In this document: positions 1,472 to 12,678 of the stretch, one piece after another
Position numbering within the stretch: the stretch's first letter is position 1
Layout: each line of letters starts with the position of its first letter
Origin: Candidatus Methylomirabilales bacterium
GTDB lineage: Bacteria > Methylomirabilota > Methylomirabilia > Methylomirabilales > CSP1-5
DNA length: 12,720 nucleotides
Assembly: GCA_046758505.1 (NCBI GenBank)
Contig: JBHIAH010000079.1
Coordinates: 1-12,720, forward strand
Direction: 5' to 3'
Translations under genes and position numbers: made by a program
The notes under the pieces: generated by a model
Told to the model about the DNA's origin: nothing
The model's database searches: none
The model's input: the letters and a program-made list of their open reading frames with translations, nothing else

Positions 1472-3430
1472 TCAGCGTTGTGCAATTGCTTCCATGAGGC
1501 CGGGGACGGCCTCGGCGCCGATCGGAACGGTGATGCTCGAGCCTGCGAAATCCCCGTCGATCGGTTCGCACCACCCGCCGAGATGCTTCGACAGGAACGC
1601 CTCCGCTACGGCATTGAATGACAGCCGGTTCTCCGGTCTGGCAAAACCGTGACCCTCGTCCGGGTAGAGCACGTACGTCACTGCGATGCCCTTGTCCCGC
1701 AGCGCCTGGACGATCTGGTCGGACTCGGACTGCTTGACCCGCGGGTCATTGGCACCTTGGGCGATGAGCAGCGGCCGCTGAATCCGACCCGCGTAACCGA
1801 GCGGGGAGCGTTCGATGAGGAAGGCCCGGCCCTCTTCCGTTCGGTGATCGCCCACCCGCGTCGCGAACAACTCCACCTGCGGTTGCCAGTACGGGGGAAT
1901 CGACTCGAGGAGTGTTACCAGGTTTGACGGCCCCACAATGTCTATCCCGCAGGCAAACATCTCCGGGGTGAGCGTCAAGCCAATCAGGGTGGCGTAGCCG
2001 CCGTAGCTTCCCCCCATGATCGCCACCCGCCCCGGGTCGGCGATTTCTTCCTGGACGGCCCAGGCGACGGCGTCGAGGAGATCGTCGTGCATCCTGGCGC
2101 CCCACTCTCGAGTGCTCGTGTTGATGAACCCCTTTCCGAATCCGGTGGACCCGCGGTAGTTGACGCTCAGCACGGCGTAGCCTCGGTTGGCCAACCACTG
2201 GTGCGAGGCGTTGTAGCCCCAGGTGTCGCGCGCCCACGGTCCGCCATGGACCAGCAGGATCATCGGCAGGGGGGCCTCGGGTCGCCCGTTGCCATCCCGC
2301 TCACTTCCTACGGGCACCGTGTAGTAGCTGACCAGGTTCAGCCCGTCGCGGGATGCGATGATCACCGGGTGTATCTTTGCGAGGGGGAGCCCCTCCAGCT
2401 GCTGGCGATTCGTGAACAGGAACTCTGCTTCTTCCCGCTCACGGTCGTAGCGATAGTAGCGGAGCGGGCCGTTGTCCATGATGTAGGCGACGATCCAGGA
2501 CCGGTCGTCGAGCGACCGACTCACCACCTCGACGTCCCCGTCGGCCACCGTCCGGAGATAGGCCAGGTCTGCTGCAATGGACGCGTCGCGGATCTGCCAC
2601 TGCTTGCGCGCGTACGTAAAGGCGACGGCCTGGACGATCTTCTCGGTCGGATGAATGAGAACGTCGCTGACGTCGGCCTCAGGATCCTCGGCAAGAAGGG
2701 TATGCTGTCCGGATTCCAGGTCCAGCGCCATCAGCGCGGCGCTGTTGCGGCCCCGGCTGTCGATCATGTACAGGATTTTCGATGTCTTGTCGAACCCAAC
2801 GGGGGACGTGGTGAGCGTGTCCTCCATGTCGATCTTTGCGAACAGCCCCCACCCGCCTTCGTCGGTCGGCCTGAGTATCTCACTTCCGCCGTCGGGGGTG
2901 ACCCGGATCGCAAAACGAACGTGGTAGTCGTCGTCGGTGACGAAGCCCGCGAATCCCGCGTTTTCCTGGAGGGGACGCCGGCCGCCGGTATCGATGTTGA
3001 CGCGGTATAGGTCGTGAAGTTGGGGGTCACGATCGTTGAGGGCCACGATGATCTCGCCGGGGAACTTCGGGCTGAGTTCCTGGAAACGGGCCTGCACGCC
3101 TTCCCCGGGCGTGAGGTTCTTGGCCTCGCGGGTCTTCAGGTCCACGCTGTAGAGCCGCCAGTTCTCATCGCCGTCCTTGTCCTGGATGTAGAGAATGTGG
3201 GTGTTCGTGTAGGCCCACTCATAAAATCGGATGCCGCGGTCGGTATCGTTGGTGACCGGCTGGGCCGCTCCAGGGTCATCGGCAGGCCCCACCCAGACGT
3301 TCAGGACACCCTCGACGGGGGCCAGGTAGCCAATCTTGGTTCCGTCCGGGCTGAGCTGGGCGGAGGCCTTGTCCGGATTACCGAACAGGAGTTTGCGTGG
3401 AATGAGCGGGAGGGTGTCTGGCCGACTCAT
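1472..3430 (-). CDS. S9 family (prolyl oligopeptidase / acylaminoacyl peptidase-like) serine peptidase, 652 aa
   Basis: N-terminal beta-propeller-like region; [15 protein letters not shown], nucleophile GGSYGG, Asp in QGANDPRV, His in DEGHGF; RBS GGAAGGA. Confidence 0.95.
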
Positions 3431-6564: not shown

Positions 6565-7239
6565 TTACGGCCCGAGCGGTTGAGGCAGTAGGGATGTGAA
6601 GGGCGATTCCGTCGAGGACTGCGATGTTCCTCCACGCTGTGGTTGCCCTCCATTCCTTCGTGCCGCCTTCACCTGAGCGCCGGTGGCAAAGTGGACGCGG
6701 CGGTTCCGCTGCCACGCCGACTCATCGTGCCCCCGGGTCACGGGTTGGGTCTCGCCGCGGCTGATGGTGACCAGTCGGCTGGCGTCAATCCCGCGGGCCA
6801 CCAAGTAATCCCGCACCACCTTCGCCCGTCGTTCCCCTAGGGCCAAGTTGTACGCTGCGCTTCCCCGCTCGTCGGTGTGCCCCTCGATCACCACGCGGAT
6901 CTGGGGATTGGCCTTGAGCCACCGGATGTTGGCCTCCAGGGTCCTCTTGGCATCCTTTCTCAGGACCGCTTTGTCGAAGTCAAAGAAGACCCCCTTCAGT
7001 AGAGAGCGCTTGCCTCGTGGGCCCGCCTGTTCGGGAGGAGATACCGGCGTTTCCCTGCCGGCCTCTGGCCGTGCGAGCTTCTCCCCTCCTGGCATGGCGC
7101 CAGGTGCCGGTGCCCGCTCAAGAGAGGTCGCCCCTCCGCCTCCCACCTGACCGTCCGGGTGCTTGGGACACCCGGTCAAGAGCAGCACTGCCATCGTGAG
7201 GGAGGCCGAGCCCACCACAAATACGCTCGAGATTTTCAC
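6565..7239 (-). CDS. Pal-like OmpA-family peptidoglycan-associated lipoprotein (224 aa)
   Basis: Lipobox [52 protein letters not shown]. No tol genes adjacent, so probably a paralog. Confidence 0.9.
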
Positions 7240-8045: not shown

Positions 8046-8417
8046 TCATTCCCCTCGGGGCTCGAACCGGCGCCGGGCCTGCTGCTCCCGCTGCCGTGCC
8101 AATTGCCTCGCGTAGTACCGCCAGATTTCATCTTGCTGTTGAAGATTGAGGTGGACAAACTCCACGCCGGCGGTCCCTGGGGTCGCCCACCGGACGCAGC
8201 CGGTAACTTCCACTGGACGGTTGCTGATTGGGAGCTGAAAACAGAGGAGCAGTTCGGCGCCGACGGGCGGCGTCGGCCCTTGGGTTGTGAGGACCGCCCC
8301 GCCGGTCCCGATGTTTGTCATCCGCCCTTCCCGCCTGCGGGCACCCTTGATCTCATACTCCACCGAGAGATCGCAGGAAATTCGGGGTGCGCGACGCCGA
8401 TCGACCGGGTCACTCAC
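8046..8417 (-). CDS. single-domain PilZ protein (123 aa)
   Basis: RRAPR (RxxxR) and NIGTGG (variant of D/NxSxxG), G.VRW….AGVEF; GTG start 8417 behind GAGGAG. Confidence 0.88.
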   Translation of the reverse strand: MSDPVDRRRAPRISCDLSVEYEIKGARRREGRMTNIGTGGAVLTTQGPTPPVGAELLLCFQLPISNRPVEVTGCVRWATPGTAGVEFVHLNLQQQDEIWRYYARQLARQREQQARRRFEPRGE

Positions 8418-8446
8418 GACGGTCTCCTCAATAGCCAATGCTTCAC

Positions 8447-8489
8447 GAAAGCAAAAGGCCCTCCCGGGCCGTACCTTGCCCGGGAGGGC
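8447..8489 (-). terminator. intrinsic terminator immediately upstream of the PilZ gene
   Basis: Perfect 12-bp stem GCCCTCCCGGGC / GCCCGGGAGGGC (8458-8469 / 8478-8489), 8-nt loop, followed on the minus strand by CTTTTGCTTTC. Confidence 0.75.
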
Positions 8490-8588
8490 GTGCGGTGTGC
8501 TGCTGCGCCAACGATTGTTGTGCAGGAGGTGGCCGATGCGCAAATCTGCCTACCCCGGTTCCATCCCTGCCTCCCCTCAGGAGCTTTG

Positions 8589-8676: not shown

Positions 8677-9633
8677 CTACCGCCGTACGATGAGGGGTGT
8701 GAAGCCTTGCCGTTTGAGCGCGCCAAGCACCGCGAGGGCCTCGGACCGGTTTTCATAGTCCCCAACCCGGACGGCGTGCACCGGGGTGGGGGCGGTCGTG
8801 GAGTCGATCTTGGGGGTGTAGTTTTTCTGCTGCAGGTTGTGAGCCAAATCGATGGCCTGGTCGAGATGAAAGAATGACCCGACCTCTAACCGAAACGTCC
8901 CACCCGCGATCTTGACTAGCTTCGACGGAAATCCGTCACCCTTCAGCCGCCGCGCGGTCCGCTCTGCCTCTTCCCGGCTGTCAAATTCCCCGCCGAAAAC
9001 GCGATGGCGGGTGATGGGCGCAGTAACCGTGCGAATGACCGGCGTATATCCAAGCTCTTCCAAGCGCTTCTTGAGGGCGAGGGCGTTGCGCTCGACAACC
9101 AGAGACGCCACTTGGAGGGTGTATCGCTTTTCCCGCTTGACCTCGGGTTTGGGTCGCGTCGCCGTCGGCGTCGGGGGCGGCTCCTCTGGTACTGGTAAGG
9201 GGGGGGCCGCAGGCGGTTCGGGGACCAGGGGAGGAGCGGTTCCCTCGGGACGCGCTGTTATCTTGGGCGGGCCTTCCGCTGGTGGCTCCTCTCGTTTCAG
9301 GTCCCTGCATTGCACGTACCCTGATCTCCCCCACACCGCGGTTTCTCTGACCTTGCACCATTCGCCCTCCGCCGTTTTCTCGGCAGGCTCGACTTTCACA
9401 ACGTCGCCCCGCATGAGCTGCATAACCACGAGGCTCGCTGTGGTCGTCCGAGCGTACACCGGCACTCGGTCTCGCTTCACGGTCACCCGTTTCGCCGGGC
9501 CTTCCGCTTCTGCTGCATTGGCAACATGAGCGGCATTGGTCAAGGGGGCTGGTCCGCGCAAGAGAACCCCGATCAACGCCACAAGACACCCGAGTCGCAT
9601 GACCCGGCTCCGCTGCGTTGCGCGTTTTTCCAT
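8677..9633 (-). CDS. exported SH3-like + Pro-rich linker + tandem SPOR-domain protein (318 aa)
   Basis: Hydrophobic N-terminus; SH3b-like V..L.RGDVVKV…EWCKV…SGYV; Pro-rich linker; four SPOR half-repeats (YTLQVAS, HRVFGGEF, FRLEVGSF, HAVRVGDY). Alternative start ATG near 9600. Confidence 0.87.
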   Translation of the reverse strand: MEKRATQRSRVMRLGCLVALIGVLLRGPAPLTNAAHVANAAEAEGPAKRVTVKRDRVPVYARTTTASLVVMQLMRGDVVKVEPAEKTAEGEWCKVRETAVWGRSGYVQCRDLKREEPPAEGPPKITARPEGTAPPLVPEPPAAPPLPVPEEPPPTPTATRPKPEVKREKRYTLQVASLVVERNALALKKRLEELGYTPVIRTVTAPITRHRVFGGEFDSREEAERTARRLKGDGFPSKLVKIAGGTFRLEVGSFFHLDQAIDLAHNLQQKNYTPKIDSTTAPTPVHAVRVGDYENRSEALAVLGALKRQGFTPLIVRR

Positions 9634-10048: not shown

Positions 10049-10204
10049 CACGGATCACGCCGCGAAGGAGTCAACACTTCTGAGGGAGGAAGGATCAGTC
10101 CGTGAAATCGTAGGGGATCGAACCCTGGGTCGCTCATGACGCTATCCGTTGGCTGTTGTTTCCCCGATTCCGTCCATGCTGAGTCACGGAAGGGAGGAAA
10201 AGAG

Positions 10205-10642
10205 ATGACGGTTGCCTCGGGCACGAAAGTTTCCATCGAGTACACGCTCAGACTGGAAGACCAGGCGGTGATCGATACCAGTGTCGATGCCGAGCCGCTA
10301 ACCTACGTTCACGGATCGGATCAGATTATCCCGGGGCTGCAAAAGGCGTTAGAGGGGATGAAGATTGGTGAGAGCAAGCAGGTTGCGGTCCAGCCGGAGG
10401 AAGGCTACGGCGTTGTCGACGCAGACGCCTTCATTGAGGTGAAGAAGGAGCAGATTCCGCCGGATGCGCTGCGCGTCGATGCGCGGCTCCAGGGCCGGGA
10501 TCCCGGCGGCGAGCCTGTTCACGCCCGGGTAGCAGAGATCAAGGAGGAAACGGTTGTCCTCGACTTCAACCATCCCCTGGCTGGCCAGACCCTGTACTTC
10601 GACGTCAAGGTCCTGGATATCGTAACGGAACCAGCCACGTAA
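10205..10642 (+). CDS. FKBP-type peptidyl-prolyl isomerase, SlyD/FkpB-like, without a His-rich tail (145 aa)
   Basis: VSIEYTL, PLTYVHG..QIIPGL.KALEG, V.PEEGYG, insert-in-flap region, DFNHPLAG.TL.FDVKV; ATG 10205 behind GGGAGG (in-frame ATG 10136 also possible). Confidence 0.93.
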   Translation: MTVASGTKVSIEYTLRLEDQAVIDTSVDAEPLTYVHGSDQIIPGLQKALEGMKIGESKQVAVQPEEGYGVVDADAFIEVKKEQIPPDALRVDARLQGRDPGGEPVHARVAEIKEETVVLDFNHPLAGQTLYFDVKVLDIVTEPAT

Positions 10643-11181
10643 TCGCGTGGACCGACCCTGACCGAAGCGGTCCCCTGCGTGTCCGTCGGACTCGACGCGG
10701 ATTTTCCTGGTCTCATCCAACGTGCGCTGGACCGCAGCCGTCTCCGTGTGGCGGGACCCAGCGTGCCCGCATCCACAAGCCGCGGAGGCTCCACAACGTC
10801 CTCGAGTTCCCCACGTCTCCCCTCCGATGTCCACCACCCCCTCGTGACCTCCTCCAGCATTTCCTTCTGGGAGACGATCCCCCCGTACAGCACCCGCCGT
10901 GGCGCCTCCGGCTCTTAAAGCATGGGCCGGGGGAATGCCTCTTCGTATATAAGGTTCCGCCTGGGGCGGCCATGCCCTCGTGCGACTTTGGGAGACCAGG
11001 CAAGCGGGGACTCTGTCGCGGATCGGTGTGTCCCTATCCGGGCGGGTGTCCAGCAGATCGGGGAGGGCAGGGTGTGTGTCCCCCCGCGCCCGGTCGAAGA
11101 TCGTCACCACTGGGTACCTAGGATAAGAGAGGTCCACTCTCAGAGCCCCTTTGATTTCAGCGGGTTCCGGGCAACAGGCCT

Positions 11182-11197
11182 TGGCACGAAGATCGCA
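11182..11197 (+). promoter_or_regulatory. sigma-54 -24/-12 promoter upstream of the PilZ fusion gene
   Basis: TGGCACGAAGATCGCA: perfect TGGCACG and GG-N10-GC spacing; about 155 nt before ATG 11354. Confidence 0.65.
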
Positions 11198-11353
11198 GGG
11201 CTTTCCGGAGGGTGTCCCCTGTCCGGCGCGGTCGCAGTCTTCATGCAGATAGGGAGAAGAGACGTCCGAGGATGGGGGCACATCATGGGACCGCGGTGCA
11301 ACCGGCCAGACGTACCGTATGCCCGGTCAAGCGGGGGCTGTGAGGAACTGGTG

Positions 11354-11980
11354 ATGTCGAAAGATCGCAAGCCGTCACATCGGGCTGATGTCCGAGTCCG
11401 CGTCAAGACATCGGCGGGGACCTATATTGGCCTGGTGACGCTGCCAGAGTTCAAGAAACGATTATCGGATGTACTGAATGATAAGCGGCCCTTCGTGTTG
11501 CTCCACGATGTCGAGGTGCTGGAGACCGGTCAATGCGTCCCGTTCCTCGCCGTGCAGAAGTCCACGATTGAGGTCGTCGAAGAGGACGACCTTCCCGTCC
11601 CCACGAGATCAGCGGCGCCCCCAATCACGGAGACCCATGAGTTCTGCCTAGGGGAGGAAGAGCGCCGCAAATCCATCCGGCGCAAGCCGCTCCACTGCAT
11701 CACCGTGAACGTGGCGCCCGGCGGCTGCGCATCCATCGTTGACTTCAGCGAGACGGGTTTTTTGCTTGAGCACCGATTCCAGCTCCGCAGTGGGCAGGTC
11801 GTTTTGATGTGCATTGGCGACCGGACGTGTCGTGCATTGGTCCGGGCGGCTGTGCGTCATACGCGGGTGCACGTGTCGGCAGATGCTGGGGTCGTCTATC
11901 AGACCGGCGTGGAGTTCTTAGAGGCTGTGGATGGATTGTTCGAGGGGCTTGGGCTCGACTTGAAGAGTCCCGCGCAGTAA
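11354..11980 (+). CDS. two-domain protein: N-terminal DUF6812-like domain plus C-terminal PilZ domain (208 aa)
   Basis: N-terminal VRVKT..GTYIG…RLSDVLND.RPFVLL.DV…FLAVQKSTI; C-terminal RKSIR (RxxxR), DFSETG (DxSxxG), YQTGVEF. Start ATG 11354 (or GTG 11351) behind GAGGA; the track's extension to 10922 does not look protein-like. Confidence 0.8.
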   Translation: MSKDRKPSHRADVRVRVKTSAGTYIGLVTLPEFKKRLSDVLNDKRPFVLLHDVEVLETGQCVPFLAVQKSTIEVVEEDDLPVPTRSAAPPITETHEFCLGEEERRKSIRRKPLHCITVNVAPGGCASIVDFSETGFLLEHRFQLRSGQVVLMCIGDRTCRALVRAAVRHTRVHVSADAGVVYQTGVEFLEAVDGLFEGLGLDLKSPAQ

Positions 11981-12081: not shown

Positions 12082-12603
12082 TTATTCACCGTAGACCCAA
12101 TCGGGGCGTCTGCGCAGCAAGACACGAAAATCCATCCGAATTTCCTCTACGGTGGGTCGCCCGACGTACCACCACCCATTGTAAATCTTGTAGATGGTCC
12201 GATTCCGATCGAGGATGAAGGTGTACGGGATGTAGACCTCGCCGTGGTGGGGGTCAGTCGTGTCGACCATCTCCAACGTATGGAGTAATGTGCGGTCTCG
12301 GTCCATCAGGAACGGCCAGTCGGCGGCAAGCGCGTCGCGCATTTCCCGGGTGTTCATCTTGTCATCGACCGACACCGTGATGAGCTTGCAGTAGTTGACC
12401 TTCAATTCGGGTTGCAGATGGGTCACGTAGTTCGTCAACTGACGACGATCTTTGGGTCAATAGTACCCGCGGATGAAGATGAGGGCGCCGGGGAAGCCGC
12501 GCAGTAATTGGGACAGGTTCCGCATGGTGCCGTCCTGGTCCGGCAATTCAAAATCGGGAAACGGGTTGTCGACGCGTAAATCCGACCGCATGGGATATTC
12601 CAT
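12082..12603 (-). CDS. AhpC/TSA (redoxin, peroxiredoxin-like) protein with in-frame TGA, probable selenoprotein (173 aa, Sec49)
   Basis: ATG 12603 behind GGAGGAGGT reads MEYPMRSDLRVDNPFPDFELPDQDGTMRNLSQLLRGFPGALIFIRGYY-TGA(12459..12457)-PKDRRQL and continues in frame into the track's 12082..12438 ORF (LITVSVD, WPFLMD, PYTFILD, IYNGWWYVGRP). Confidence 0.88.
12426..12456 (-). promoter_or_regulatory. candidate bacterial SECIS element
   Basis: After UGA: CCCAAAGAUCG-UCGUC-AGUU-GACGA-ACUACG. 5-bp stem; the apical loop starts 16 nt after UGA, with G at loop position 2 followed by U. Confidence 0.55.
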
Positions 12604-12678
12604 GGGCCACCTCCTCCCGCACGGGTGTGGTCAGACATTGGTGAGTTTCTGTTGACGGCGATGGCCATCTGCGGGGCA

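Follow-up and report, generated by a model that had tools for sequence, protein, structure and literature searches.

Prx-like selenoproteins have long been described, with the motifs UxxC, UxxU, UxxS and UGC; PMC2398784 carries the Prx-like thiol:disulfide oxidoreductases (UxxC/UxxU) as 'Prx-like 1', and its supplement contains one GOS read with the generic motif FIRGAWUPKC. For peroxiredoxins, the text of PMC13188914 gives the motif PxxxT/SxxC/U. Here we compare with these systems a gene from the window, i.e. the whole stretch of 12,720 nucleotides that was analysed, which is the entire contig C79 of a 2.99-Mb assembly with a completeness of 96.8%. With a probability of roughly 0.93 we read the gene as encoding a 173-residue selenoprotein with selenocysteine (Sec) at UGA-49, a putative single-selenol oxidoreductase whose likeliest activity is that of a thiol-dependent peroxidase.

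The frame on the minus strand begins with ATG at 12603, comprises 173 sense positions and ends with TAA at 12084-12082. It contains one TGA in the protein context FIRGYY*PKDRRQL, and 124 codons follow in the same frame.

12082..12603, minus strand: full coding sequence of the inferred AhpC/TSA (Prx-like) thioredoxin-fold selenoprotein, motif RGYY-U-PKD, 173 aa, assigned by translation, Pfam PF00578 and structure model.
12609..12617, minus strand: Shine-Dalgarno-like GGAGGAGGT in the sequence upstream of ATG 12603.
12457..12459, minus strand: in-frame TGA, codon 49, inferred selenocysteine; the only TGA of the frame, paired with Cys in homologues.

A strong ribosome-binding site, GGAGGAGG, is located 6 nt 5' of ATG 12603. 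The start codon could be M5 instead of M1, and many TGA homologues have an ATG only at position 5; M1 is favoured because of the spacing of the ribosome site. The Pfam family AhpC-TSA (PF00578) matched residues 11-139, i.e. across the TGA, with 60.1 bits (cut-off 26) and an E-value of 2.7e-16. A preliminary description of this DNA had reported a ribosome-binding site with ATG at 12603, a single TGA at codon 49 followed by 124 in-frame codons, an AhpC/TSA thioredoxin-fold frame and a UxxD motif. The upstream sequence, the translation, the Pfam match together with the model, and Asp at position 52 agree with it on these points. The GC content of the gene (56%) is the lowest among the 11 window genes, while its GC3 is ordinary.

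The same description had named as checks of a Sec reading the presence of Cys at this column in homologues, of TGA in reads and relatives, and of selA, selB, selC and selD in the genome; all were borne out. Column 49 is Cys in 116/120 proteins (the best 120 of 497 protein matches), and two database proteins have W there. At the DNA level, the best 80 of 88 loci comprised 45 with TGA and 33 with Cys, one that was misaligned and one that did not cover the column; neither TAA nor TAG was found at the column among the 80. The view that the family is 'normally Cys-containing' was thus a truncation artefact. Adding the window gene and one relative gave a working set of 46 TGA and 34 Cys genes. Three loci do not enter these later counts: L088, which leaves the column uncovered, and L090 with its duplicate L105, which is misaligned there and apparently frameshifted.

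Could the TGA be a recent nonsense mutation, the mark of a pseudogene or a sequencing error? Cys forms are 81% identical to the window gene, a single step leads from TGC or TGT to TGA, and a search of 13 other genomes of the genus turned up no orthologue. Yet 45 other loci, spread over many phyla, have the same TGA and never TAA or TAG, the TGA genes being distributed under 11 phylum labels. Both halves of the gene are under purifying selection, with pS/pN of 0.73/0.23 before and 0.73/0.14 after the TGA in 17 pairs of TGA genes, and a hairpin tracks the TGA (see below). Long contigs from 4/4 metagenome runs cover the codon and agree on TGA without any other letter, although these are vent metagenomes of one study, possibly the source of the present DNA, and therefore not independent. 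Taken together, we regard a mutation or an error as next to impossible. In the same four runs, short contigs of high depth stack precisely over the hairpin (window 12377-12462), a hint that further organisms or strains in these samples carry the segment with hardly a letter changed.

Of the 10 other window genes with Pfam support, 5 end in TGA, and so do 628 of 1,203 long frames in the genome, where it is their commonest stop. It is therefore a normal stop in this organism, in line with the earlier opinion that a global reassignment of UGA is unlikely. The genome contains selA, selB, selC and selD, all scoring above cut-offs, and its selD itself holds one TGA. The sole tRNA with a TCA anticodon is tRNA-Sec. 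In databases the gene is represented by a shorter call:

12082..12438, minus strand: truncated call of 118 aa that starts at a TTG within the hairpin, an ORF under table 11 and stored as a fragment; annotation artefact.

This is the 118-aa piece to which, according to the preliminary description, gene callers shorten the gene, and the identical sequence is indeed present in the protein collection (NCBI source) in a cluster of 42 members. Each of the 15 listed members of this cluster begins 3' of the TGA; NC10 or Methylomirabilales appears in the labels of some. A genome-wide reading of UGA as Trp or Cys, or a true split into products of 48 and 118 aa, would be compatible with the stored call and with W at the column in two database proteins. 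On the other hand, both the stop usage and the restriction of the TCA anticodon to tRNA-Sec speak against reassignment; no Shine-Dalgarno-like sequence was found before TTG 12438, and a break would cut the AhpC-TSA domain at its active site. Reassignment or a split is thus highly improbable.

A stored full-length protein at >=97% identity was found for 13 Cys loci and for 0 TGA loci. The protein databases appear to hide the Sec forms of the family as fragments without the active site, and the Cys members bear the label 'peroxiredoxin'. The analysis hence corrects a systematic annotation error, where Sec forms are fragmentary and Cys forms carry the name 'peroxiredoxin' without the catalytic residues of peroxiredoxins.

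In eight of the 18 AhpC-TSA matches in the genome a single TGA interrupts the frame, always where the motif has a Cys (TxxU, UxxC, UxxF and others), which identifies the genome as rich in selenoproteins. Besides the window gene these AhpC/TSA-type genes of the same genome are:

C14:23065-23439, minus strand: in-frame TGA at TPT*.
C1:121765-122115, minus strand: in-frame TGA at ASW*PHC.
C1:70450-70833, minus strand: in-frame TGA at GPT*.
C88:6812-7183, plus strand: in-frame TGA at AHW*HYC.
C7:23700-24068, minus strand: in-frame TGA at TYG*INC.
C7:47327-47737, plus strand: in-frame TGA at SFT*PPF, a motif that we take to be reminiscent of deiodinases.
C114:1454-1780, plus strand: in-frame TGA at TSC*INC.

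A SECIS-like hairpin was seen in 6/7 of these additional genes, and in two of the genome's other AhpC-TSA genes with TGA the hairpin loop begins 16 nt 3' of the TGA, as it does in the window gene:

12432..12445, minus strand: bacterial SECIS-like hairpin UCGUC-AGUU-GACGA with a 5-bp stem; the loop AGUU begins 16 nt after the UGA, and its G is loop position 2.

The geometry agrees with the bSECIS model as given in the text of PMC13188914. By itself the hairpin of the window gene is not beyond chance. Its region has a borderline MFE of -7.5, the z-score against shuffles is about 0, an equally stable hairpin occurs in about 20% of 3,000 random TGA triplets, and synonymous resampling yielded p = 0.11; the lowest-energy fold has its register slid by 3 nt. 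The support is comparative. By a rule that was fixed after inspection of the data, a hairpin is located 16-20 nt downstream of the column in 46/46 TGA genes vs 6/34 Cys genes, where the peptide alone lets one expect 7.2 and 2.8, respectively. Paired cells make up 86.8% of the stem in TGA genes and 49.5% in Cys genes. Four stem pairs change on both sides in the TGA genes, with the stem variants CGUC/GACG, CGCC/GGCG and CUCC/GGAG. The TGA alignment has 45 cells with pair changes on both sides vs 17 in shuffles, and 0/500 shuffles were as high; because the Cys alignment likewise exceeds its own shuffles (0/500), this control is lenient. None of the five independent Sec/Cys pairs on the tree contradicted the link of hairpin and TGA, the median p of 0.125 being not significant.

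The Cys genes that retain the hairpin (L023, L024, L025, L038, L052 and L081) possibly represent recent Sec-to-Cys changes; residual hairpins in Cys genes have a precedent as remnants of such changes in the legend to Fig. 4 of PMC1794560. A looser SECIS rule was dropped as evidence, as 38% of all 82,701 TGA triplets satisfied it. The Rfam search of the window gave no match, and the promoter scan found 1 site vs 0.4 expected, which is not evidence.

Because of the frame, the pairing of TGA with Cys, the covarying hairpin and the genomic Sec machinery, we consider it very likely that TGA-49 encodes selenocysteine, as the preliminary description had proposed. Following established bacterial Sec decoding, SelB on the hairpin would bring Sec-tRNA(Sec) to UGA-49, and in selenium-free cells the product would end at residue 48. 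As a mechanism, this recoding is the standard one.

The selA gene scored above cut-off in 38/44 TGA hosts vs 23/33 Cys hosts, L059 being omitted from this count as it comes from the same assembly as L044. Because 23 of the 33 Cys hosts also have selA, its presence separates the two groups poorly. In one of the six TGA hosts without selA, a contig end carries a fragment of the gene; selB and tRNA-Sec occur together in three of them, and tRNA-Sec by itself in another. The sixth, G082, for which completeness was not given, shows none of selA, selB and tRNA-Sec above cut-off. A search of the class produced matches in 28/151 genomes, mostly from a UPKC sister clade. The further loci from this search, several of which overlap the first set, belonged to the UPKC clade in 24/27 and had TGA in 25/27 cases. 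The patchy spread may reflect transfer or loss. One assembly contains two TGA copies of the family, L044 and L059, with differing hairpin variants.

The tree requires 10 changes between Sec and Cys, of which at least 5 are forced by supported branches. Rooting by distant outgroups was unreliable, two of the rows used for it (L112 and L126) being faulty extractions, and no direction was therefore assigned to changes between U and C or between D and C. Among the 46 TGA genes, 37 encode D and 9 encode C at position 52; the 34 Cys genes have D there in 31 cases and E in the other 3. A second Cys at column 52 was found solely alongside TGA (loci L023-L129), while no CxxC form occurred in the 34 Cys loci or the 120 proteins. 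On the tree, the UxxC genes fall into two groups and are thus not independent cases. The UxxD, UxxC, CxxD and CxxE forms are in part about 80% identical, with about ten Sec/Cys switches among them. Such close Sec and Cys forms, together with a SECIS that decays in the Cys forms, provide a convenient model of Sec/Cys switching.

A structure model was built with Cys at position 49 and reached a mean pLDDT of 92.7. The closest solved folds among the matches listed were BCP/PrxQ, AhpE and Prx6 with Z of 19-20 and rmsd of 2.2-2.6; the Prx/BCP scaffold 3hjp gave Z 20.2 and rmsd 2.4 over 157 aligned residues. The nearest solved structures, again among the matches listed, are 13-23% identical. In Foldseek ResA scores equal to BCP. 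The following features refer to the putative active site and its surroundings:

12448..12450, minus strand: Asp52 codon; aligns with the second Cys of CxxC and with the peroxidatic Cys of peroxiredoxins in the alignments to BCP and ResA.
12388..12390, minus strand: Cys72 (VNYC), the sole Cys codon of the gene; candidate resolving or structural residue, from conservation and model.
12154..12183, minus strand: YNGWWxxGRP signature, residues 141-150; family marker, invariant or nearly so.

In the alignments, residue 49 falls on the Thr/Ser in the peroxiredoxin motif PxxxTxxC and on the first Cys of ResA. The preliminary description had placed the TGA at the catalytic Cys. This holds for the Cys column of the homologues; it does not hold for the catalytic position of peroxiredoxins, where Asp52 takes the place of the peroxidatic Cys and Sec that of Thr/Ser. 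Cys72 is Cys in 46/46 TGA and 31/34 Cys genes. In the model it follows helix 50-67, past the far end of these 18 residues, so that a direct bond between 49 and 72 would need unfolding or a partner subunit. Pro126 (IPYTF) is present in 80/80 rows at or beside the catalytic Arg of peroxiredoxins; we take its position to be that of the substrate-binding cis-Pro of thioredoxin-type proteins. No signal peptide was evident by eye, and from its sequence the protein is likely cytoplasmic.

Thioredoxin and glutathione peroxidase use the start of the active-site helix, and Sec49 is predicted to sit at this very position on a peroxiredoxin-type scaffold. Its selenolate would attack the oxidant. Because Asp52 replaces the second Cys a local selenenylsulfide is not possible; recycling by an outside thiol may follow, or less likely recycling via Cys72. 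Arg45, Asp52, Gln55 and His120 probably shape the active site. The enzyme would act as a stand-alone oxidoreductase with a peroxidase as the most likely type, an assignment of activity based on fold and motif position only. A peroxidase-like activity as such is tentative, and we would give it slightly less than even odds.

Alternatively, the selenoprotein may work in the monothiol manner and reduce mixed disulfides or persulfides of one specific partner. This would fit Sec at the thioredoxin position, the invariant Pro126 at what we presume to be the cis-Pro place, the tie of ResA with BCP in Foldseek and the occurrence of UxxC in sister clades. The whole-length scaffold, however, is closest to BCP/Prx and no conserved partner gene was found: in the clustering of neighbours across homologous loci no group was common to more than 5 loci, and the largest occurred mostly among close kin. 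We consider such a reductase rather unlikely. The present protein is reminiscent of deiodinases in that its one Sec lacks a partner Cys and is placed on a Prx-like fold. Reductive dehalogenation of an aromatic substrate, or similar chemistry, would agree with His120 and the aromatic set Y127, Y141, W144 and W145, none of which varies among the Sec forms that extend over these positions. Yet the deiodinase models of Pfam and NCBIfam were unmatched at E 0.01 and the genomic context shows no halogen metabolism, so that a dehalogenase is decidedly improbable. An activity other than peroxidase, reductase or dehalogenase is unlikely as well. Thus we favor the view of a single-selenol oxidoreductase of peroxidase type.

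Further genes of the window are ordinary, with no evident link to the selenoprotein:

407-1435: two-domain rhodanese.
1472-3430: S9 peptidase.
6565-7239: Pal lipoprotein.
8046-8543: PilZ.
8677-9633: SPOR-domain protein.
10136-10642: FKBP isomerase.

The convergent neighbour at 10922-11980 on the plus strand contains DUF6812 and then, by eye, a PilZ-like stretch; the listed ORF probably begins well ahead of the true start.

How does the window protein compare with the described families? With the Prx-like UxxC/UxxU selenoproteins (PF00578; representative WP_010940744.1, which reads FYRGAWUPYC) it shares the Pfam domain, Sec as the first residue of the redox motif in FxRGxxUP, an in-frame UGA with a downstream SECIS, and Cys homologues. 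It differs by Asp52 in the place of their second Cys or Sec, and the test for membership failed. The family signatures VNYC, DPxHG and YNGWWxxGRP are absent by eye from WP_010940744.1. The UxxC Prx-like protein of the genome itself is only 22% identical to the window protein over 59 residues; UxxC also occurs within the window family (9/46 TGA genes). A resemblance of the window protein to cd02970 PRX_like2 is our assumption. With the UxxS entry of cd02970 in Table 1 of PMC13188914 (representative MDX2448127.1) it has in common a Prx-like scaffold and the absence of a second Cys, and the motif UxxD sets it apart from that entry as the catalogue describes it. The best NCBIfam match, the SelL-related redox protein NF040769, scored 30 bits against a cut-off of 120 and 19-35 bits with 8 relatives, so the window protein is not a member; no NCBIfam model reached its cut-off for the window protein or the 8 relatives. 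In the deep-Sep table, AhpC/TSA is represented by an AhpC-TSA_2 protein with another motif type.

Peroxiredoxins of the BCP/PrxQ, AhpE and Prx6 types (PDB 3hjp, 3drn, 5epf, 2cx3) share the Prx-type thioredoxin fold at 15-21% identity. Unlike these and the Sec-peroxiredoxins (TxxU), the window protein lacks the PxxxT/SxxC/U motif. Peroxiredoxins have a catalytic Arg before the xxFxID strand; the window protein has IPYTF with Pro126 there, and in the alignment to 2ywn the Arg stands next to this Pro, opposite a gap. ResA/TlpA (PDB 1st9, 3kcm) have in common the reactive residue at the first position of CxxC and an IPxTF loop with the invariant Pro, whereas the window protein has neither a second Cys nor an evident membrane anchor and scored 20.9 bits vs a cut-off of 170. 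The Pfam and NCBIfam models for glutathione peroxidase, like those for deiodinase, gave no match at E 0.01. Both families were absent among the fold matches listed, which does not exclude them.

Table 1 of PMC13188914, a catalogue of 119 families, does not list UxxD, and we found no literature that pairs UxxD with selenocysteine or a CxxD motif with thioredoxin. UPKD and YNGWW had 0 matches in the supplements of PMC2398784, PMC12013277 and PMC1794560 and were absent from passages of PMC1976440, PMC13326102 and PMC13745706; BSepDB and other databases built on homology may already contain members as 'Prx-like'.

It is doubtful that the family is a Sec-Asp selenoenzyme subfamily with Asp in the seat of the peroxidatic Cys, a chemistry distinct from that of peroxiredoxins and thioredoxin, and a specific substrate in a pocket of YNGWW and His120. 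If true, the natural UxxD, UxxC, CxxD and CxxE forms would be a ready series for testing the catalytic contribution of selenium. Judged from its residues, the window protein is not a peroxiredoxin. The UxxD form apparently is an uncatalogued subfamily of the Prx-like selenoproteins, and because PMC13188914 counts the same domain with a different Sec motif as a distinct subfamily, it would be a new entry of that catalogue.
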